Source: a virus
Lineage: Duplodnaviria > Heunggongvirae > Uroviricota > Caudoviricetes
Direction: 5' to 3' (one strand)
DNA length: 64,000 bases
IMG/VR virus record: IMGVR_UViG_2925939204_000001
Below, piece after piece: positions 5,231 to 57,600 of this stretch. Made by a program: the position numbers and the translations under genes. Position 1 is the first letter of the stretch; each line of letters opens with the position of its first letter. The notes beneath the pieces are model-generated. The model did not search any database. It had not been told where the DNA came from and saw nothing but the letters and a program-made list of their open reading frames with translations.

Positions 5231-5569
5231 TCAGGCTGCTTTTTTATTCAGGTTCCGCTGAGAAATAAATTTTTCAGCAGTATTGATACGACTTAACTCT
5301 TCCTGGACGCGCATATCATTTTCGACTTCCCACAGATCTACTGCGGTCTGAAGATTAATCCAAAAATCTACAGAAGTATCGAATGCTTTTGCCAGGCGAT
5401 ATGCCATATCCATCGTTAGCTTACGATTGTTATTAACAAGAGCGCTTACGGTGTTACGATGAACATGAAGTATTTCTGCTAACTCGTTGATCTTCAGCTC
5501 TAACGGCTCCAGGTATTCGTACAGCAGGATATCACCTACGGTCGTCGGTTTTCTGGTTGCCTGTTTCAT
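5231..5569 (-). CDS. higA: HigA-family antitoxin (XRE HTH, COG3093-type)
   Basis: HTH region LAEILHVHRNTVSALVNNNRKLTMDMAYRLAKAFDTSVDFWINLQ; directly downstream of the HigB-like toxin. Confidence 0.75.
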   Translation of the reverse strand: MKQATRKPTTVGDILLYEYLEPLELKINELAEILHVHRNTVSALVNNNRKLTMDMAYRLAKAFDTSVDFWINLQTAVDLWEVENDMRVQEELSRINTAEKFISQRNLNKKAA

Positions 5570-9353: not shown

Positions 9354-10259
9354 ATGAGATCAGTCGCTTTCAAAAATATCTTCATCTATCGTCTTTCACG
9401 CGAAGTTAGCTGGGATACTGCAGAAGTAAATGCAGCCCTTAGCAAGTTTGTGTTTACCCCATGCGGTTCTCAGGATATGGCTAAAGCTGGTTGGACCTCC
9501 GTTCTTGGTGACAACCTCACCCATGAATACCAGGGTTTTCTTCTGATACAGCATAAACGAGAGGAAAAAATCCTACCTTCTCAAGTGCTCAAAGAAGAGT
9601 TACAGAAAAAAATCCTGACACTTGAAGAAGAGCAAGACAGAAAGCTGAAGAAGACCGAAAAAGATTCGCTGAAGGATGAAGTGCTTCACTCTCTTCTTCC
9701 TCGTGCTTTCACGAGAAAATCACTCGCCAAAATCCTGATCGACCGCAGCAACCATCTGGTATTCGTTGAGGCAAGCAGCGCCAAAAAGGCAGAGGACCAG
9801 CTGGCTTTATTGCGAAAATCGCTCGGCAGCCTGCCTGTCATTCCATTCACACCACGCGAACCGCTGGAAATTACAATGACCGAGTGGTTTAAAAACGGCT
9901 TCCCTGCCGGATTTACAGCAGGTGAAGACGCCACATTAAAGGGTCTGCTCGATAATGGTGGTGCCGTTCGCTGCAACAAAGTTGATCTACAGTCCGACGA
10001 GATTATGTCTCACATTGAGGCGGGGAAAGTAGCTACGACCGTTGCAATTAACTGGATGGACCGCGCGTCGTTCAGAGTCAACGATGATATGAGTATCAAA
10101 GCCCTGACATTCTGTGATGATCTCTATGACCAGAACGACGATATCGACCGGGAGGATGTAGCACAACGATTTGATGCTGATTTCGTGCTCTTTACGGGCG
10201 AATTATCTGCACTGTTTAACGCGCTGGTGGAGGCCATTGGCGGTGAAGCAGAACGTTAA
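9354..10259 (+). CDS. rdgC: recombination-associated protein RdgC homologue (P1 HrdC-like)
   Basis: Near colinear similarity to E. coli RdgC as recalled ([34 protein letters not shown], [15 protein letters not shown]). Confidence 0.85.
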
Positions 10260-12399
10260 CCTTCGATATGGTTCAGTTTGCAGTGGAATTGAAGCCGCGA
10301 GCATTGCCTGGGAACCGTTGGGTATGCGTCCGGCGTGGTTTGCTGAAATTGAGCCTTTTCCATCTGCCGTTCTTGCGCACCGCTGGCCTCATATCGCCAA
10401 CCTTGGCGATATGACAAAACTTGCCAAAAAAGTCCTGGCTGGGGAAATCGAATCCCCTGATGTGCTCGTCGGGGGAACACCTTGTCAGGCATTCAGTATC
10501 GCGGGATTACGTGGTGGGCTTGATGATGAGCGCGGCGCGCTAACTTTGAAGTATGTGGAGCTTGCAAATGCAATTGACGACAAACGGTCTGAGTCCTTCC
10601 TCAAACCGACAGTTATCGTCTGGGAAAATGTCCCAGGAGTCCTGTCATCGGCAGATAACGCCTTCGGATGTTTCCTTGCCGGATTGGCTGGAGAAGATGC
10701 ACCATTTGAACCAGGTGATCGACCTGAATCAGGAAAAAGTAACGCGTTCTGGCGGTGGGATGGCAAAACCGGTTGCCATGCTCCAAAGTGGCCGCAGTGT
10801 GGTTGTATTTATGGACCGCAGCGAAAGGTGGCCTGGAGAATACTTGATGCCCAATACTTCGGAGTGGCACAACGACGCCGACGCGTGTTTGTTGTCGCAA
10901 GTGCTCGAACAGACCTCGATCCCGCAACGGTACTTTTTGAGTTCGAAGGCGTGCGCCGGGATATTGCGCCGAGCAGAGGCGAGGGGAAGGAAGTTGCCGG
11001 AAATGTTGGAAATGGCATTAAAAGCGGGAGCCATTGGGATAACCCTGTAAATCCTCACCCGACACTTGCCCGATCGCACAATACCGGCGGGACGGGTGCA
11101 AGCAACCAGGAGATTTTTTCACAGCGCGGAAGTGGGCTTGTCGGTGCTTACCGGATGGTAGCATTTGGTGAGTATGCGGATGATGAGGCGGCTTCCACGG
11201 TCAAGGCCAGAGATTTTAAGGATGCAACCGACCTGGCTGTTTTTGACAGTGCGAACGTCGGAGTGGCAGTACGTCGCTTAACGCCTGTCGAGTGCGAACG
11301 CCTGCAGGGCTTTCCTGACGGGCACACGTTGATCCCTACGGAAAAGCGTAAAAAAGTTTCTTCAGATGAACTGGCATACCTTCGCAATCACTATCCAGAT
11401 TTAAGCGAAGAAGAGGCCGCGATGCTTGCAGCTGACGGACCGCGTTACAAAGCGATCGGCAACAGCATGGCAGTTCCTGTTATGCAATGGATAGGGTGTC
11501 GCATTCTTGCGACCGTAGCGGATAAACAGCAAAAAACAATAAATACCATTACCTACACAAGAAAACTCCGGACTCCGGATGAATATGAACGCCCAATATT
11601 CAAATGGGTAGGCGGTAAATTCTCAGAGTTGCCTACAGTGCTTGAGCATCTACCACACGGCAAGCGGTTAATAGAACCATTCGTTGGTGGCGGTTCCGTA
11701 TTTACGAATGCAGGATTTCGCCACAACCTGCTTAATGATATTAACGGTGACCTGATTAACTTCTATCAGACATTGCAGCGAGAGGGACATTCGCTCGTCA
11801 CGCTGGCATATAGTTTTTTCAAAAATTACAACAACGCTGACGCTTACCTCGAAGTGCGCGAGGCATTTAACAGAGGAAAGTATGACCAGCTACATCATGC
11901 TGCCGCCTTTTTGTACCTTAATCGGCACTGTTTTAATGGCGTAACGCGGTACAACCAAAATGGCGAGTTCAACGTGGGGTATGGCAAATACAAAGCGCCC
12001 TACTTCCCACATGCAGAGATGGAGGCATTTTTGGCTGATGACGTACTCAAAAACACGTCCTTTGTATCAGGTGACTTTGCTGGCGTCATCGAGGCGGCTG
12101 GTGAAGGCGATGTGATTTTTTGCGATCCGCCGTATGAACCGCTGCCGGATACAGAAGGGTTTACCAGTTATTCAGGAAATAGCTTCCGTTTCGACGAACA
12201 GAAACGGCTGGTATCTCTATTGGTGGAAGCCCACCAGCGCGGCGCTAAGGTAGTGATAACAAATAGTGGTGCGCCAAACATCCGTGAACTATATGAACGA
12301 AACGGGTTTAAAGTACATCATATGGCAGCCAGACGGTCGGTGTCCTGCAAGGCGTCAACACGTGTAGTTGCTAACGATATAATTGCAATAATGAAGTAA
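10243..12399 (+). CDS. bifunctional DNA methyltransferase: N-terminal C5-cytosine MTase fused to C-terminal Dam-type N6-adenine MTase (P1 Dmt-like)
   Basis: C5 motifs [30 protein letters not shown]; Dam motifs KWVGGK and DPPY; GTG at 10243 after GGAGG is the likely start (ORF opens at 10171). Confidence 0.85.
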
Positions 12400-12431
12400 A
12401 AAACGCCGCAGTAGCGGCGTTTACTTTTTTA
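12398..12431. terminator. bidirectional rho-independent terminator (ACGCCGC-agta-GCGGCGT flanked by A/T tracts) between dmt and glnS
   Basis: Read directly at 12403-12420 with T-tract 12421-12430 and A-tract upstream. Confidence 0.6.
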
Positions 12432-12447
12432 TGTGGCGAAATACCTA

Positions 12448-14109
12448 TTAACCTAACTTCGCCCAGGTATCACGCAGCCCAACGGTGCGGTTAAATACCG
12501 GTTTTTCCGCCGTAGAATGGCGGCTGTCGAGGCAGAAATAACCTTCACGCTCAAACTGGAATGCTTTACCCGCTACCGCTTCTTTCAGCGACGGTTCAGC
12601 AAAACCCTGTTTGATCACCAGCGATTCCGGGTTAATCACCGACAGGAAATCATCCGCAGCACCTGGGTTCGGCACGCTGAACAGACGATCGTACAGGCGG
12701 ATTTCAACCGGCAGCGCATGTGCCGCGCTCACCCAGTGAATAACGCCTTTCACTTTACGACCATCTGCCGGATCTTTGCTTAAGGTGTCGGCGTCATAAG
12801 TACAGAAGATGGTGGTGATATTGCCTTCGGCATCTTTCTCCACGCGTTCAGCCTTAATGACGTAAGCATTACGCAGACGCACTTCTTTACCCAGCACCAG
12901 ACGTTTGTACTGCTTGTTAGCTTCTTCGCGGAAATCGGCGCGGTCGATCCAAATCTCACCGCTAAACGGCACCTGACGGCTACCCATTTCCGGTTTGTTT
13001 GGATGGTTCGGCATGGTGACCATTTCGCCTTCGCCCTGGTAGTTTTCGATAACCAGTTTCACCGGATCGATAACCGCCATTGCGCGCGGCGCATTTTCGT
13101 TGAGATCTTCACGGATGCAGGATTCCAGCGACGCCATCTCAATGGTGTTGTCCTGCTTGGTCACGCCGATGCGTTTGCAGAACTCACGAATAGAAGCCGC
13201 AGTGTAACCACGACGACGCAGACCGGAAATGGTCGGCATACGCGGGTCATCCCAGCCTTCAACGTGCTTGTCGGTCACCAGCAGGTTCAGCTTACGCTTG
13301 GACATCACAGTGTATTCCAGATTCAGGCGCGAAAATTCGTACTGGCGCGGGTGAACAGGAATGGTGATGTTGTCCAGTACCCAGTCATACAGACGACGGT
13401 TGTCCTGGAACTCAAGCGTACACAGAGAGTGCGTAATACCTTCCAGCGCATCGCTGATGCAGTGGGTGAAGTCGTACATCGGGTAGATGCACCACTTGTT
13501 GCCAGTCTGGTGATGTTCAGCAAACTTAATGCGGTACAGCACCGGGTCGCGCATCACGATAAACGGCGAAGCCATGTCGATTTTCGCACGCAGGCAGGCT
13601 TTACCTTCTTCAAAACCACCGGCACGCATTTTTTCGAACAGCGCCAGGTTCTCTTCAACGCTGCGGTCGCGGTACGGGCTGTTTTTACCCGGCTGCGTCA
13701 GGGTGCCGCGGTATTCGCGGATCTGTTCCGGCGTCAGTTCGTCAACATACGCCAGGCCTTTGTTGATCAGTTCAACAGCATAGGCATGGAGTTTGTCAAA
13801 ATAATCGGAGGAGTAACGGATGTTGCCAGACCAGTGAAAACCTAACCATTCAACGTCGTTTTTAATCGACTCGACGTACTCGATATCTTCTTTTACCGGG
13901 TTAGTGTCGTCGAAACGCAGGTTGCACTGGCCTTTATAGTCCTGGGCGATCCCGAAGTTCAGGCAGATAGATTTCGCATGACCAATATGCAGATAGCCAT
14001 TCGGTTCCGGCGGGAAACGGGTATGTACTGTGGTGTGCTTACCACTGGCCAGATCTTCATCGATGATCTGACGAATAAAGTTAGTCGGGCGGGCTTCTGC
14101 CTCACTCAT
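12448..14109 (-). CDS. glnS: glutaminyl-tRNA synthetase
   Basis: Full-length 553-aa product nearly identical to enterobacterial GlnRS as recalled; HIGH motif ([12 protein letters not shown]) and KMSKS-like VMSKR. Confidence 0.95.
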
Positions 14110-14261
14110 TGTGGATTCCTCAAAGCGTAAACAACGTATAACAGCGTATGATCTTATAAGCCGAATAGGCTGACAACCACTAGTTGATTAGAAATTACTT
14201 TCTATCGTTATTTCAATAATGAGCTTTTTCATGAAGCCCACTTTTGCGCATAAGTAAATTA

Positions 14262-14340
14262 ATGACAAATGGTACACAATTGGAACCAAAAAGGATGTAA
14301 AGGTGCACCAAATTAGTGGTGTATTGGTGCACCTTTGGTT
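14262..14340. repeat. cluster of degenerate TGGTGCACCA-like palindromic half-sites including a perfect 13-bp inverted repeat; candidate centromere/operator
   Basis: aaaggtgcaccaa-N12-ttggtgcaccttt at 14299-14337; tggtacaca, ttggaacca, tggttcaag nearby. Confidence 0.4.
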
Positions 14341-14377
14341 CAAGACTTTTTAAGTTCTAAAACCAACCTGAAAGACT

Positions 14378-14665
14378 TTATTTTGCTTCCTCAGACTCCG
14401 CTAACATGAGGATAGCATGGCGGATCATATTCAATTTGCTGCGATTATGCTTTTTGCTCAACGCATCAAGTACCTGGTACTCGTATTCATTGAAACCAAC
14501 ACGAATAGATTTAAAATCACGTGGAGCGTCCTTATCGAGCACTTTGTTGTCTTCTGGTTGCTCACCCGGCACCAAATCAGCCTTACTTGCAAAATCCTCA
14601 ATTCGGCGTTCAAGATCGGGGTCTTTTACTTCGGGGGCTTTTACCGATTTACGAGGCTTAATCAC
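14378..14665 (-). CDS. ParG-like ribbon-helix-helix partition/centromere-binding protein
   Basis: Small protein directly downstream of and overlapping the ParA-like gene; C-terminal RHH-like SIRVGFNEYEYQVLDALSKKHNRSKLNMIRHAILML. Confidence 0.6.
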   Translation of the reverse strand: MIKPRKSVKAPEVKDPDLERRIEDFASKADLVPGEQPEDNKVLDKDAPRDFKSIRVGFNEYEYQVLDALSKKHNRSKLNMIRHAILMLAESEEAK

Positions 14666-15299
14666 TTAATAACTCCTTAACCAACATCTGGATTTCACCT
14701 TTAGCTTTCCCGTTGTCCATCTCAACAACGCCCTTCCCTTCAGCCATGCAATCGCGGTAAACCTTACGATCACGAATGATGGTTTTCAGCAACTTCAGTT
14801 GCGGATATTCAGCCAGGTACTCTTTGGCCTCATTGGTTTCATTCACAACCGGATTGGATGGGGCCATTGTTAAGACTGCGAACGCCTTAATGCTAGGATT
14901 AGGCATCAGGTCCAAAGCCTCTTCAAACACTTCAACAAAGTGTGCCAGCGTGTCTAAATCTGGTTGAGATGGTCTGAATGGGACCAACACAATATCTGCA
15001 GCGGTTATGCCTGTACGCATCTCTTTGCTATCGCGCCCGGCTGTATCAACAACAACAAATTCATAACGCTTATCCAGATCGAGAAGTGTTTCTCGAATAT
15101 TACCAAACTTCTGGACACAATGAATTACAGGAGAAACCTCTGCCGTGTTACGGTCAGCTGCCCAGCGGGCAGCTGTTCCTTGCTTGTCTGCATCTAGTAA
15201 CACTACATCCTTATTTGCGCGGGCAAGCTCCGCACAGATGTTTACGCTTGTGGTTGATTTTCCACAGCCACCTTTTTGGCTGACTACCAATATAATCAT
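14658..15299 (-). CDS. parA: ParA/ParF-type partition ATPase (small type Ib Walker ATPase)
   Basis: Deviant Walker A KGGCGKST; ATG at 15299 with GAGGAA RBS (ORF track opens at 15329). Confidence 0.85.
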   Translation of the reverse strand: MIILVVSQKGGCGKSTTSVNICAELARANKDVVLLDADKQGTAARWAADRNTAEVSPVIHCVQKFGNIRETLLDLDKRYEFVVVDTAGRDSKEMRTGITAADIVLVPFRPSQPDLDTLAHFVEVFEEALDLMPNPSIKAFAVLTMAPSNPVVNETNEAKEYLAEYPQLKLLKTIIRDRKVYRDCMAEGKGVVEMDNGKAKGEIQMLVKELLSD

Positions 15300-15460
15300 A
15301 TCCGTTCCTCGGTGTGATTTTGGTATCAAAACGGTTCCAGATAAGAGCCTTTTTGATGCGGGACAGGCTCTATAATGGAGTCATGAATGTTTGGCAAAGT
15401 ATAACATCAATCAGACCAAATACACCTTATATTGCATCCTATTTAACACGAAATCAGCCC

Positions 15461-17160: not shown

Positions 17161-17445
17161 ATGAGCGCAATAGCCACCAGCGACACCCTTTGTTCTGGTC
17201 ACGGAGGATTTCCGCCGCGACTGGTAGCTGAAACCGTTCCCTGGTTCACCGTTAACGGTAAGCCAGTTGTTGTAGATGGTGCCATGTTTCCCAGTCACAC
17301 TGACGGTAACAGTGCACATCCAGGGGCAGCTGTATCGACGCGAGTATGGTTTTCGATAGGTGGAAAGGGAGTTGTCTGTGTAGGCGATCCGCTTTCTTGT
17401 GGTTCTGTTATCGCCAACGGCGAGGATATTTTTCAGGTTGCATAA
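17161..17445 (+). CDS. PAAR-domain spike-tip protein
   Basis: About 94 aa with CSGHGGFP and INGKP-like repeats typical of PAAR; strong RBS AGGAGG. Confidence 0.6.
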   Translation: MSAIATSDTLCSGHGGFPPRLVAETVPWFTVNGKPVVVDGAMFPSHTDGNSAHPGAAVSTRVWFSIGGKGVVCVGDPLSCGSVIANGEDIFQVA

Positions 17446-54678: not shown

Positions 54679-57600
54679 GTGAAAATAACATTCTCCATAC
54701 CCTCTCAACCGTACCGCATAGCGGAATTTTTACGGTTTAGAGGGGGAAATCCTTTGGACAAACTACTTCATTCAATCAGTGAAGCCTCCAGCTTAGGCGA
54801 ACTGATTGAAATTGTTAGTCGGTTGCATAAATTACGAGCTGTTGCGACCTTTGGCGTCAGGAAAGCCGATGGCGTCAGTATTCAGAAAACACGCCGGGCA
54901 GCAAACAATGCCGCAGTAAATCTTCTTAATTCCCTTCCGCCCGGCTTCGATGGGGCGAAATTAACTGACGAACAACGTCAGATTCTTGCCGGGTATACCG
55001 GTGAAGGCGGCCTGACAGATGGTGAGGGCAGCCAATACGAATACTACACGCCACAGTTTATGGCTGAAGGTATATGGGATCTGTTTGCTGACTACGGTAT
55101 TGATGGCGGGCACGTACTGGAACCATCAGCGGGCACAGGTATTTTCCAGGAGACAAAACGACAGGGCATGATAATGACCAGCGCCGAACTGTCTCCGATT
55201 TCCGGTCGAATAAACCAGCTTTTGCACCCGGAAGACGATGTGAATATCGGGGCGTTTGAGGCGCTGGCGGCGAAAGACGCAATGTATGATCACGCTGTTG
55301 GTAACGTACCGTTTGGTGAAGGGCGTTCCGGTGTCGCCGGGCTTGATCCGGCATATGCAAACGAGAAGAACGTTGGCAATTACTTTGTGCTGCGCACGAT
55401 CGACAAGGTTAAGCCTGGTGGGCTTATCGTATTGGTGGTGCCGAATGGCATGACCGATGGTGCGAAATATAAAAAATTGCGCGATAAAGTCAGCCGTAAA
55501 GCGGAATTTTTGGGCGCGCATCGTATGCCTTCCGGTACGTTCAGTGAATCAGGTACAGATACCGTGGTGGACGTATGGGTATTGCGTAAACACCCGGAAG
55601 CCTTCCTGGAGATGATCCCCGATACGGATGATTCGACGCTCAAATCGGCAAACGTCCTTTGGGATACCTTCCTCAAAGGAAAATGGTTTACAACCGAAGG
55701 GAAGCGATTTGTTTACGGCGACATGGAACGTACCAGCTTCCGCAATACCCTGGTGGTGAAAAAAGACGGTCGTGTATCCAATGAGTCGATGAAAACCGCG
55801 CTATCTCGTCGCTTTGATAGTCGCATCAATTGGGATTTGCTCGGCGTAACTACTCAGGCATGGCAGGGCGCGAAAGTGGGCGATAAACGCCTTGTAGGCG
55901 GTATCTGGCATGAGTTTGATGGTCTGAAATGGGTTAAGGACACGACAACCAAATCCTCCGCGCTTGATGTAAGTCGATATGGTGTTTCGACGTTTGGCGA
56001 TCTGCAGATCGCGTTTCAGTCAACAAATGGCATTCTGGCTTTGTCATGGGACCAGATATCGGCGATCGCGTCTGACTACCCATCGGTTGTCAGTGATGAA
56101 GTGGCAGCAATGATTCGCTTTGCTGGCAAGCAGCGAGAAAAAGACAGGGAGCGCGTTATGCGCGGTGCACTGATAGGTCAGTTGATCAACAAGGCACTTG
56201 ATTTGCGTAACCTGGGGGTGAACGTTGATGACAAACTGGCAGATGCATCCCGCCTGGCGGCAGCAGAAGTTGCGAAGTATGGACCACCGCACGCGATTAA
56301 GCTGAATGGGCTTGCTGAAGCTGGCGCTAAAAACTGGATGACGTTCACTGGCAATGTGAAACAGGATGGTTCCACTTCTGACCTTCTGGCAGGGCGACTT
56401 GATGTAACGGATGGTGCTGCCGGTATTGACTTTACGCGTCCTGAACAAGTGATAGCACATCTTTTTAGTGATGTAGCCCTTAATCCTATAACGCTTGGCG
56501 ACTTTCGTGAGGCGTTTGCTGGTGAACTGCCAGAGGACGACGACGCGGCCCTTGAATACCTGGCGAAATTTGATGATATCGCTATTGATGGGTATGGCTG
56601 TCTGCTGCCGATGGACCGCGCCACCAGCGGCGATGTTGCAACCAAAACAGCACTGCTGGTGGGCTGGCGTGATGCGTCAACAGGTGAGCAGAAAGCGAAC
56701 TTTGAGCGTCAGTTGGCGAAAATCGAAGAGAAACGCATTTTCACGCCACTAAATAAAGTCACCGTTAATCTGAATGCCCGCTGGCTGGATCGCCGCTTGA
56801 TAAAAGAGTTCCTGGCAGAGCAGGGCTATGACGAGTTTAAGTACACTGAACCTGATCTGAAGGTCGTCGATGGCATTCTGGTATCTCCGGACGATTACGA
56901 AGGTAAGGACGGTGTATTTACCGGCTACCAGCTACGAACCGTAAACGGCAAAAACGGGAATGAGTTCAAGAAGGCCAACAATAAAGACGGCTTCCTGAAC
57001 CAGTTAGAAAACTACCTGAACGGTGTTAAACCGCGTGGGCAGAATGCTAACGAGTACCTGGATAAAATTGCTCAACTGGAAGTTAGCTTTAACGACTGGT
57101 TACGCACCCACCCGCAGGCGGATCAGATAGCCCGTGACTATAACGACGCATTCAATGGTTTCATTCCGTTCACACATTCTGACGCACCGCTAGGCCTGGA
57201 AGGGATTAGTGGAAAGCGCATTCCTCTGACTTATCAGAATGAAGAAGTTCGCCGCTTGTCAGAAGATGGGCGTGGCATCATGGGATTTGGTACCGGGCTG
57301 GGTAAAACCACGACCGCGCTTGCGCTTGAGGCGTATAACTTCGAAACAGGTCGCACTAAACGCACGTGTATTGTTGTTCCGAAGGCGGTTTATCAGAACT
57401 GGTATCACGAGGCACAGAGTTTCTACAGTGCTGATGCCTTCGCCAATATGATGTTTATCGGTTTGGATGAAGTTCGTGATGACGGCGGAAATATTCTTAC
57501 CGCGCCAGTGCTTGATGAAAATGGCGAACCACGCCTCGACAGTAACGGGCAGCCTCTTACCAGAAATGTTGTGAAAGAGTCCGCCAGCGCCGTTATCGTT

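Follow-up and report, generated by a model that had tools for sequence, protein, structure and literature searches.

The window analyzed here is a 64,000-nucleotide stretch of DNA in which a complete glnS coding sequence occupies positions 12448–14109 on the minus strand (553 amino acids with an ATG start, from the open reading frame call and profile matches to glutaminyl-tRNA synthetase, GlnRS), flanked on one side by a DNA methyltransferase gene and on the other by two partition modules. The methyltransferase gene (10171–12399, plus strand) is convergent with glnS and encodes a dmt-like bifunctional enzyme of the C5-cytosine and N6-adenine D12 classes (PF00145 and PF02086); it forms a single fused 742-residue reading frame in the window and two reading frames, orf64 and orf63, in phage D6, with the annotation “similar to P1 dmt”. 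Upstream of glnS lies a partition module at 14378–15329 on the minus strand, comprising a gene for a ParA-like ATPase (14658–15329) and a 95-codon reading frame (14378–14665), which correspond to orf60/orf61 of D6 and are followed by a StbB/ParM module. The ATPase scores 162 bits against the ParA_partition profile NF041546, short of the cutoff of 180, and also matches the Pfam CbiA and AAA_31 families, while the 95-residue product has no family match in Pfam and NCBIfam profile searches.

The plasmid-borne protein matches the GlnRS equivalog profile TIGR00440 over the full length of the profile (residues 28–551 cover profile positions 1–524 of 524) and scores 1067 bits where the cutoff is 425.8, which bears out the description of this gene, in a prior sequence-only reading, as full-length cargo between dmt and the partition genes. 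It contains the three GlnRS/GluRS domains PF00749, PF03950, and PF20974, that is, a class I Rossmann catalytic domain followed by two C-terminal anticodon-binding barrels, and residues 1–553 align to solved E. coli GlnRS chains in the PDB. The signature motifs HIGH (41–44) and VMSKR (268–272) are present, and I130 and D236 are unchanged. The gene differs from K-12 glnS at 59 of 1650 nucleotides, and the two proteins are 99.3% identical, with four substitutions (V97I, Q106K, I112V, and D510E) in 550 residues and a C-terminus that reads KLG* rather than KVGE*. The plasmid glnS is thus a complete and apparently working GlnRS gene, and its product would be expected to charge tRNA-Gln with glutamine, considering both this identity to a characterized enzyme and a dN/dS of 0.02.

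The gene did not travel as a bare coding sequence. The captured chromosomal cassette spans 12400–14196 (minus strand) and includes an 87-nucleotide 5′ region with the promoter, the coding sequence, the 3′ untranslated region, and a terminator. The BLASTN search for capture junctions, as proposed in the sequence-only reading, returned K-12 homology across 12452–14196, promoter included, and the matches to Kluyvera, Enterobacter, and Atlantibacter run on through the terminator to position 12398. The proposed comparison of composition with the flanks likewise sets the cassette apart, with a GC3 of 0.61 as compared to 0.46 in the other reading frames of the window. A promoter scan places the native σ70 promoter at 14148–14176 on the minus strand (−35 TTGTCA, a 17-nucleotide spacer, and −10 GATCAT, which contains the Dam site GATC); it can be aligned to the promoter region of K-12 glnS, with which it has both hexamers in common. 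A passage in PMC12369378, citing Plumbridge & Soll 1987, describes repression of glnS by Dam. The bidirectional terminator that had been noticed beside glnS is indeed there: the hairpin at 12401–12422, AAACGCCGC-TACT-GCGGCGTTT between A- and T-runs, scores as an intrinsic terminator on both strands. In Citrobacter, Salmonella, Kluyvera, and Enterobacter, among others, glnS is followed 20–40 nucleotides past its stop codon by a hairpin of the form AAACGCCGC-loop-GCGGCGTTTTTT, whereas in K-12 the terminator hairpin is situated beyond two REP elements, of which the plasmid gene has none between its stop codon and the terminator. Judged by this comparison, the element at 12401–12422 is the native enterobacterial glnS terminator, which came with the gene and would now also end dmt.

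With its native promoter and terminator, glnS would be independent of the phage operons. Allowing up to three mismatches, we found the consensus operator of P1 C1 nowhere in the window, and no operator-like motif recurs at the glnS promoter, where the sequence directly upstream of the −35 hexamer occurs only once; control of glnS by a phage repressor was therefore rejected. An AT-rich filler of about 80 nucleotides (14197–14275) separates the cassette from the repeats on the par side. It has no homologue in the sampled chromosomal glnS upstream regions (K-12 and loci from about 80 species), in two relatives that lack glnS, or in the P1 region searched along with them, and is matched only in another D6-like contig. 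Beyond it, just downstream of the 95-codon reading frame, is a perfect 13-nucleotide inverted repeat at 14299–14336 (AAAGGTGCACCAA / TTGGTGCACCTTT), whose arms (14299–14311 and 14324–14336) are 12 nucleotides apart and each contain GGTGCACC. All other inverted repeats upstream of glnS are weak, and the earlier impression of a palindrome-rich upstream region thus holds for this one repeat, at a site that lies below the par module. In relatives without glnS, this site beneath the 95-codon frame is occupied by other repeats, which are specific to the lineage. We consider the repeat to be probably a site of the par module (a putative centromere/operator or operon terminator) and not part of the glnS capture.

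The window belongs to a D6-type phage-plasmid, a relative of P1 that is kept as a low-copy plasmid prophage. Across the glnS region, it is 100% identical to the E. coli plasmid p95_MLI121, and it shares 98.7% DNA identity over 3.1 kb with phage D6, in which glnS is annotated as orf62 and the GlnRS protein is 99.6% identical. The genes shared in order with the D6 annotation are those for tail and baseplate, then hrdC, dmt, glnS, a parA-like module, stbAB, and upfCB, and the order recurs in 10 further assemblies. The survey of related phage-plasmids that had been suggested found the glnS arrangement of the window in phage D6 and 97 PLSDB plasmid records, along with about 20 relatives without the gene, and the glnS junctions are identical in ten further independent assemblies. 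A GlnRS protein of at least 95% identity is present in 104 PLSDB records, and among the matches listed, 26 of 28 are on D6-sized plasmids of 85–96 kb. Members of the D6 family are present in approximately 1.8% of the complete genomes of E. coli; the par region of this type is found on plasmids in 100 genomes and on no chromosome, for which reason we rejected chromosomal integration via glnS homology. The presence of glnS on D6-like elements is already known and has been published as characteristic of the phage D6 family; a 2019 paper discusses the gene for the D6-like genomes under study there (PMC6799933).

The site of insertion is defined by a sister lineage of about 20 related plasmids (86–88% identity), in which dmt directly adjoins the par module and glnS is absent. 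From these sequences, the ancestral state of the site is read as dmt-terminator-par, without tRNA genes, and glnS is, by the same comparison, dispensable for the element. Both this absence from relatives at the same site and the distinct composition of the cassette are features of a “moron”. The comparison also bears on the suggestion that an aminoacyl-tRNA synthetase (aaRS) gene here takes the place of the tRNA genes that follow dmt in P1-like elements: P1 does carry trnA and trnT, then trnI, after dmt, but given the D6-type gene order and the abutment of dmt and par in relatives lacking glnS, the gene does not stand “instead of” tRNAs. No tRNA genes lie within the window; the five tRNA genes of the plasmid (Ile, Ser, Thr, Tyr, and Arg, none of them tRNA-Gln) lie shortly beyond its edge, some 42 kb away from glnS, and adjoin a Tad2 anti-Thoeris gene.

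The window allele falls inside the Escherichia clade, in line with the enterobacterial origin that had been read from the sequence, but none of the chromosomal copies in about 5400 complete E. coli genomes matches it (95.8–97.2% identity). The recent host capture previously envisaged does not fit with a single capture of an allele that is 3–4% diverged from all of these chromosomal copies. In the donor search, the exact window protein was found solely in D6-like contexts, and in the donor comparison, which left out E. albertii, E. fergusonii, and E. marmotae, no one branching among the window allele, E. coli, and E. ruysiae is clearly favored, with 6, 3, and 4 informative sites. Relative to K-12 glnS, dS is 0.17 and dN/dS is 0.019, and among 11 plasmid or viral alleles, all with intact reading frames, 84 polymorphic codons are synonymous and 8 non-synonymous. 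By these measures, the plasmid glnS is under strong purifying selection. Part of this signal could, however, date from the gene's time on the donor chromosome, or have arrived with converted tracts, instead of reflecting selection on the plasmid copy. The promoter is identical in these 11 alleles and the terminator is likewise invariant; as the promoter and both junctions are the same in the 11 alleles and 10 further loci, a single capture is indicated.

Several plasmid alleles are mosaics, with contiguous K-12-type tracts in D6, L009, and L005–L007 (in D6 at nucleotides ~1110–1572, with 20 of 22 sites of the K-12 type), showing that gene conversion from the host chromosomal gene continues to patch the plasmid glnS. 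Flow of alleles from plasmid to chromosome was rejected, because the plasmid-type tract at nucleotides 262–362 occurs in 70 plasmids and on no chromosome. Carriers essentially keep their chromosomal glnS, since 5424 of 5426 complete E. coli genomes contain a match to at least 80% of the cassette, at 5427 chromosomal places. As a side observation, one viral contig, L010, holds an 85%-identical glnS beside fimbrial chaperone and subunit genes; on account of these neighbors, it is probably host DNA rather than an independent viral capture of an aaRS gene. Further viral contigs hold GlnRS copies of 48–75% identity.

Taking these observations together, the explanation that we favor, with moderate confidence, is that of a single capture, after which the plasmid glnS serves as a constitutively expressed second GlnRS, a “moron” that may bring a modest benefit. 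An ancestor of the D6 lineage would have acquired, once, a piece of about 1.8 kb of an Escherichia-lineage chromosome containing glnS with its own σ70 promoter and terminator, and this piece would have come to lie between the stop codon of dmt and the par genes, displacing the terminator present in relatives without glnS. In the lysogen, the gene would be transcribed from its housekeeping, Dam-damped promoter, independently of phage regulation, and, as the element encodes no tRNA-Gln, an active product would charge the host tRNA-Gln, thus supplying an enzyme essential for translation in additional or reserve dosage. A special glutamine demand was considered and rejected: glutamine accounts for 4.25% of codons in the reading frames of the window, which is near the usual E. 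coli value and thus unremarkable, with no special need for Gln-tRNA to be expected. The gene is presumably not needed in the phage life cycle and may be retained for a modest gain to the lysogen or the element.

It is also conceivable that glnS is carried along with little or no effect on fitness, as a harmless gene that was captured once through illegitimate recombination and is continually repaired by conversion from the chromosome. The frequent E. coli-type conversion tracts and the success of relatives without glnS are compatible with this, as are a 1-nucleotide deletion in the glnS of one plasmid record (a true frameshift or a sequencing error) and a study of Salmonella ST213, in which isolates with and without a D6-like plasmid showed no phenotypic difference. 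However, the tracts cover only part of glnS, and the approximately 55 plasmid-type sites outside them are almost all synonymous; neutrality predicts mostly non-synonymous changes, in contrast to the excess of synonymous polymorphic codons noted above. Nonsense mutations, large deletions, and IS insertions were absent from 21 inspected alleles from independent assemblies, approximately 100 PLSDB records retain a protein of at least 95% identity, and the promoter and terminator do not vary. We consequently regard neutral carriage as unlikely.

Another possibility is that glnS acts as a plasmid-retention device via an essential gene, in the manner of cysS on plasmid pBT1, with the plasmid copy supplying most or all of the effective GlnRS and plasmid loss becoming disadvantageous. 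The pBT1 cysS is a precedent, being essential while the chromosomal cysS is down-regulated, and the same idea was raised for glnS in the 2019 paper on D6-like genomes (PMC6799933). The plasmid gene comes with a constitutive promoter, and several other maintenance systems are combined on the element, namely two partition modules beside glnS, Phd/Doc, and, in D6, HigA/RelE. Set against this, addiction to a plasmid gene would entail loss, inactivation, or down-regulation of the chromosomal copy in carriers, and no such loss is seen in the DNA (the match persists in 5424 of 5426 genomes), the shared −35 and −10 hexamers of the plasmid and chromosomal promoters leave no obvious route to selective silencing, and the sister lineage persists without glnS. 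We judge such a role distinctly unlikely, and very unlikely the associated claim that GlnRS in the lysogen comes mainly from the plasmid gene, as for pBT1 cysS, which would amount to an essential-gene “hostage” form of maintenance in a temperate phage. Were this so, the takeover together with 1.7 kb of chromosomal homology, across which gene conversion already takes place, would tie host viability and the evolution of host glnS to the phage-plasmid.

The counter to tRNA-directed defences proposed in the sequence-only reading gained no supporting finding. More generally, an extra GlnRS might shield translation from a defence, toxin, or inhibitor that hits GlnRS or Gln-tRNA-Gln, a role for which the tRNA clusters of phages and resistant aaRS paralogues such as mupA provide the comparison. 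The conservation of glnS and, circumstantially, the five tRNA genes beside an anti-Thoeris gene on the same plasmid are compatible with this, but glnS lies about 42 kb from that cluster, the nearby genes encode no GlnRS-directed toxin, and our literature search found no link among GlnRS, toxins, and phage defence. Rather than the altered active site of a paralogue of the mupA/ileS2 type, the protein has four conservative substitutions outside the catalytic motifs and a changed tail, and is thus not a resistant variant. We consider this role highly improbable. Finally, there is next to no chance that a chromosomal glnS was mis-joined to plasmid sequence during assembly, as had been put forward as a refutation: nothing was found in favor of it beyond the closeness of glnS to the chromosomal copy, the junctions recur in D6, in 97 PLSDB plasmids, and in 10 more among many independent assemblies, the nagE/chiP flanks are absent, and the allele matches no E. 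coli chromosome examined.

As aaRS genes are uncommon on plasmids and phages, the D6 family is of interest as a case in which a temperate phage-plasmid has long retained a housekeeping GlnRS in near-native form. Our analysis adds the limits of the cassette, the sister lineage without glnS, the presence of this allele on no E. coli chromosome, and the ongoing conversion from chromosome to plasmid. These details make the glnS of D6 cleanly testable, while the basic picture is unchanged and no new kind of element is described.

The closest known counterparts are D6 orf62 and the glnS of the D6-like plasmid prophage pYU39_89, which occupy the same place, with dmt on one side and orf61/parA-like and then stbB/stbA on the other; the D6 gene differs in the K-12-type conversion tract of about 450 nucleotides in its 3′ third, which the window allele lacks. 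Chromosomal E. coli glnS (b0680) is similar in its promoter hexamers with the Dam site, ribosome-binding region, terminator type, and enzyme, whereas the plasmid allele diverges by 3–4% in nucleotide sequence and lacks the nagE/chiP context and the REP elements. Phage P1 has a homologous hrdC-dmt region followed by tRNA cargo (trnA, trnT, tciABC, trnI, and ban), while in D6-type elements convergent par modules follow dmt and the tRNA cluster lies elsewhere on the plasmid. Among the cultured phages of the searched collection, D6 alone has a full-length GlnRS match; the GlnRS homologues of the huge or uncultured phages LR745206 and LR756502, with genomes of about 635–640 kb, are about 50–54% identical and are not recent host copies. 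The cysS of the Salmonella Typhimurium ST313 plasmid pBT1 likewise encodes a complete class I aaRS that duplicates a housekeeping enzyme; its carrier is a large plasmid of enterobacteria, and the chromosomal copy is intact. There, dominance of the plasmid copy and altered enzymology were shown by experiment, whereas the D6 glnS is known from its sequence, is nearly identical to the host enzyme, and is carried by a phage-plasmid.

The minus-strand reading frame at 12448–14109 encodes 553 amino acids, and its product is a full-length match to the NCBIfam glnS equivalog TIGR00440 (1067 bits against a cutoff of 425.8), contains all three class I Glu/Gln-tRNA synthetase domains of Pfam and is matched by solved E. 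coli GlnRS chains across residues 1–553, so that by homology we assign it to the GlnRS family. Over the first 1650 nt compared, it differs from K-12 glnS (b0680) at 59 nucleotides, with 53 codons changed synonymously and 4 non-synonymously (V97I, Q106K, I112V and D510E), and the protein ends in KLG* as compared to KVGE* in K-12. With only these four substitutions and the altered C-terminal tail, the sequence-only reading of a complete gene nearly identical to enterobacterial GlnRS is borne out. The HIGH (41–44) and VMSKR (268–272) motifs are intact, and I130 and D236 (counting Met1), two positions known from mischarging mutants, are the same as in K-12.

The gene is carried as a cassette (~12400–14196) that includes its own regulatory signals, and whose third-position GC content (GC3 0.61, versus 0.46 in the remaining ORFs of the window) sets it apart from its flanks, in the codon and GC comparison that the sequence-only reading had proposed. 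Homology to the K-12 chromosome extends from 14196 to 12452, that is, from 87 nt 5′ of the ATG to just short of the stop codon. Upstream lies the housekeeping glnS promoter (–35 TTGTCA, 17-nt spacer, –10 GATCAT), with hexamers identical to those of K-12, three substitutions in the spacer and the GATC within the –10 element retained. According to PMC12369378, glnS is among the documented Dam-repressed promoters (Plumbridge and Soll, 1987), and the 2025 confirmation gives a change of +1.08 log2 upon dam deletion. Downstream, a hairpin at 12401–12422 (AAACGCCGC-TACT-GCGGCGTTTTTT) is scored as an intrinsic terminator in either orientation, as the earlier description of a bidirectional terminator implied. 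The same hairpin is found 20–40 nt after glnS in Citrobacter, Salmonella, Kluyvera, Enterobacter, Trabulsiella and Atlantibacter, and is thus glnS's own terminator, which now also serves the convergent dmt gene; in K-12 the glnS terminator is placed beyond two inserted REP elements, and in E. ruysiae a REP-type sequence immediately follows the stop codon.

As originally proposed, the cassette lies between a methyltransferase gene, the dmt-like C5+N6 DNA methyltransferase at 10171–12399 (plus strand), and the partition genes, comprising a ParA-like ATPase and its 95-aa partner ORF (14378–15329, minus strand), followed by StbB/ParM. Escherichia phage D6 (MF356679) matches the region 11800–14900 at 98.7% identity and has, with the same neighbors, orf62, annotated "glutaminyl-tRNA synthetase, similar to E. 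coli GlnS"; the match to the E. coli plasmid p95_MLI121 (NZ_CP117014.1) is at 100% identity. Among PLSDB plasmids, 97 cover at least 80% of the region, from hosts that include Escherichia, Salmonella and Shigella; 133 of the 136 PLSDB records matching it are typed as non-mobilizable, with sizes of ~90 kb among the matches listed. Judged by these matches, the element belongs to the D6-like phage-plasmids.

We also note several features of this neighborhood. The segment 14378–16918 (minus strand) holds two unlike partition systems back to back, the small ParA-like protein with the 95-aa ORF and then the actin-type ParM/StbA with StbB. The ParA-like ATPase scores 162 bits on NF041546, under the cutoff of 180, and a family search with the adjacent 95-aa ORF matched no family. 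The window dmt is one fused 742-aa ORF with both C5-cytosine and N6-adenine methylase domains (its TTG start comes from a mechanical ORF call); it is split or shortened into 226-aa and 301-aa ORFs in D6 and many relatives, and present as 718–757-aa versions in others. The ORF at 17161–17445, oriented divergently to the ParM operon, corresponds to upfC of P1, whose product carries a PAAR-domain annotation in P1 and in related plasmids. In D6, a HigA/RelE-family toxin–antitoxin pair adjoins the tail genes (10–721 of the D6 locus), and Phd/Doc is also present on the plasmid matching the window, such that the D6 family stacks several maintenance systems.

Besides the glnS-bearing D6 and D6-like plasmids, there are 20 related plasmids that do not carry the gene. 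The latter were found using a query in which the dmt 3′ end was fused directly to the par side, with at least 80% required in one place, and match at 86–88% identity; the two halves are therefore contiguous in these plasmids, and glnS is dispensable for such elements. The dmt stop and the 95-aa ORF are just 95 bp apart in NZ_CP091837.1, and this spacer, which that of NZ_CP104667.1 resembles, has another bidirectional terminator (AAAAAGCCCCGATCGGGGCTTTTTT) along with short repeats specific to the lineage, from which it follows that the glnS insertion replaced an ancestral terminator. As these relatives have repeats of their own, the palindrome-rich region below the 95-aa ORF, which in the window includes a perfect 13-nt inverted repeat (14299–14336), is an intergenic feature of the lineage rather than dependent on glnS, and is probably part of the par module, as a putative centromere/operator or operon terminator. 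The repeats 3′ of the 95-aa ORF vary by plasmid lineage, with GGTGCACC arms in the window (14275–14345), CCAATTCGG-type repeats in NZ_CP091837.1 and GGTAC-type repeats in NZ_CP104667.1 (5025–5100 and 4860–4960 in the glnS-less loci L107 and L108), which would fit a centromere/operator co-varying with its small partner protein. Between the cassette and these repeats lies ~80 nt of AT-rich filler (14197–14275), for which no homologue was found in the sampled chromosomal glnS upstream regions (K-12 and ~80 species' loci) or in the glnS-less relatives; it holds an imperfect hairpin (TGAGCTT/AAGCCCA).

Among species representatives, the window glnS groups with Escherichia: its divergence is 4.0% from K-12 and 4.9% from E. 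ruysiae, but 12% or more from all others, Citrobacter, Kluyvera and Salmonella among them, although the branching of the window, E. coli and E. ruysiae alleles depends on only 6, 3 and 4 informative sites. Its synonymous distance is 0.166 to K-12 and 0.212 to E. ruysiae (0.257 between the latter two), with a dN/dS of 0.02. The cassette finds a match in 5424 of 5426 complete E. coli genomes, where the sampled chromosomal copies are 95.8–97.2% identical and, among the matches listed, all alignments end before the terminator part. A 101-nt plasmid-type tract (glnS nt 262–362, encoding I97, K106 and V112) is carried by 70 plasmids and by no chromosome, and the exact protein is found in 2047 blocks of the public collection, with D6 context in all ten places listed. 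The earlier suggestion of recent host capture is thus disfavored, and this pattern points instead to a capture that is old, or from an unsampled Escherichia lineage without the REP insertion.

None of the 11 full-length plasmid or viral alleles examined is disrupted, and promoter, terminator stem and junctions do not vary among them; the junctions recur at ten further glnS loci. Polymorphic codons in the 11 alleles comprise 84 synonymous and 8 non-synonymous cases. At the 59 sites separating the window allele from K-12, contiguous K-12-type runs occur in D6 (nt ~1110–1572, 20 of 22 sites), in allele L009 (nt 234–363) and in alleles L005–L007 (nt 285–324), a mosaicism characteristic of repeated gene conversion, with host chromosomal glnS as donor and the plasmid copy as recipient. 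Flow in the opposite direction was not seen, the plasmid-type tract being found on none of the E. coli chromosomes, and in 100 complete E. coli genomes the par region was found on plasmids every time and never on a chromosome. One D6-type glnS region (GCA_900449905.1, contig UASF01000009.1, 614172–623833 of 699,698 bp) lies on a 700-kb contig, which might reflect cointegration, integration of the element or a join made in assembly. Just one disrupted copy was seen, in the D6-related 36.5-kb linear (incomplete) record NZ_CP027382.1; it has a 1-nt deletion at glnS nt 1376, which is either a genuine frameshift or an error in sequencing.

The element, a low-copy phage-plasmid, carries an intact, selectively constrained GlnRS gene with housekeeping promoter and terminator, while its hosts retain a glnS of their own. 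By definition the gene qualifies as a moron, and we lean towards a functional one of modest dosage or backup benefit. Expression would be constitutive in lysogens, rise with copy number in lytic replication and be damped about two-fold by Dam/Dmt methylation of the –10 GATC, and the enzyme would charge host tRNA-Gln as extra or backup GlnRS. That glnS is instead a neutral hitchhiker appears unlikely, given the synonymous excess in polymorphism and the absence of disrupted copies other than the single deletion. Essential-gene addiction, as with cysS on the Salmonella plasmid pBT1, is somewhat less likely still, since chromosomal glnS copies persist, and at the DNA level glnS does not qualify as such a gene. 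We regard a role in counter-defense or toxin resistance as improbable: the window GlnRS is no variant enzyme and does not qualify as an inhibitor-resistant paralogue, the gene is unlinked to the tRNA/anti-defense cluster, and the literature search gave no GlnRS-directed toxin. A chimeric assembly, which the sequence-only reading had named as its own refutation, is excluded for practical purposes by identical junctions in many independent records and ten further assemblies. Translation support through special glutamine demand is not indicated (4.25% Gln in the window ORFs), and a search for a phage-repressor operator at the glnS promoter found none.

The presence of glnS on D6-like elements is already known, from the D6 orf62 annotation and from a 2019 paper (PMC6799933) that terms it a moron, suggests, from the analogous cysS of pBT1, that it may serve host fitness or plasmid maintenance, and cites Gilcrease and Casjens (2018) for D6. 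What is added here is incremental: the extent of the cassette, a glnS-less sister lineage, an allele absent from the E. coli chromosomes examined and one-way gene conversion. Most of the other GlnRS genes in plasmid records reside on megaplasmids, chromids or mislabelled chromosomes, and one IMG/VR contig has a copy, 85% identical, that adjoins fimbrial genes and is probably host DNA.

A tRNA gene search of the 64-kb window found none. The matching plasmid NZ_CP117014.1 carries five (Ile, Ser, Thr, Tyr and Arg, none for Gln) ~42 kb from glnS, at 55251–57573, ~2.5 kb past the end of the window; a Thoeris anti-defense Tad2 family gene directly adjoins them, and pYU39_89 is reported to have a different set of four (Asn, Thr, Ser and Met; PMC6799933). 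The earlier statement that tRNA genes follow dmt is right for P1, where dmt is followed by trnA, trnT, tciABC, trnI and ban, but does not extend to D6-type elements, in which the gene order differs. Among the cultured phages in the collection searched, only D6 has a full-length GlnRS match, whereas the copies in huge uncultured phages are ~50–54% identical.
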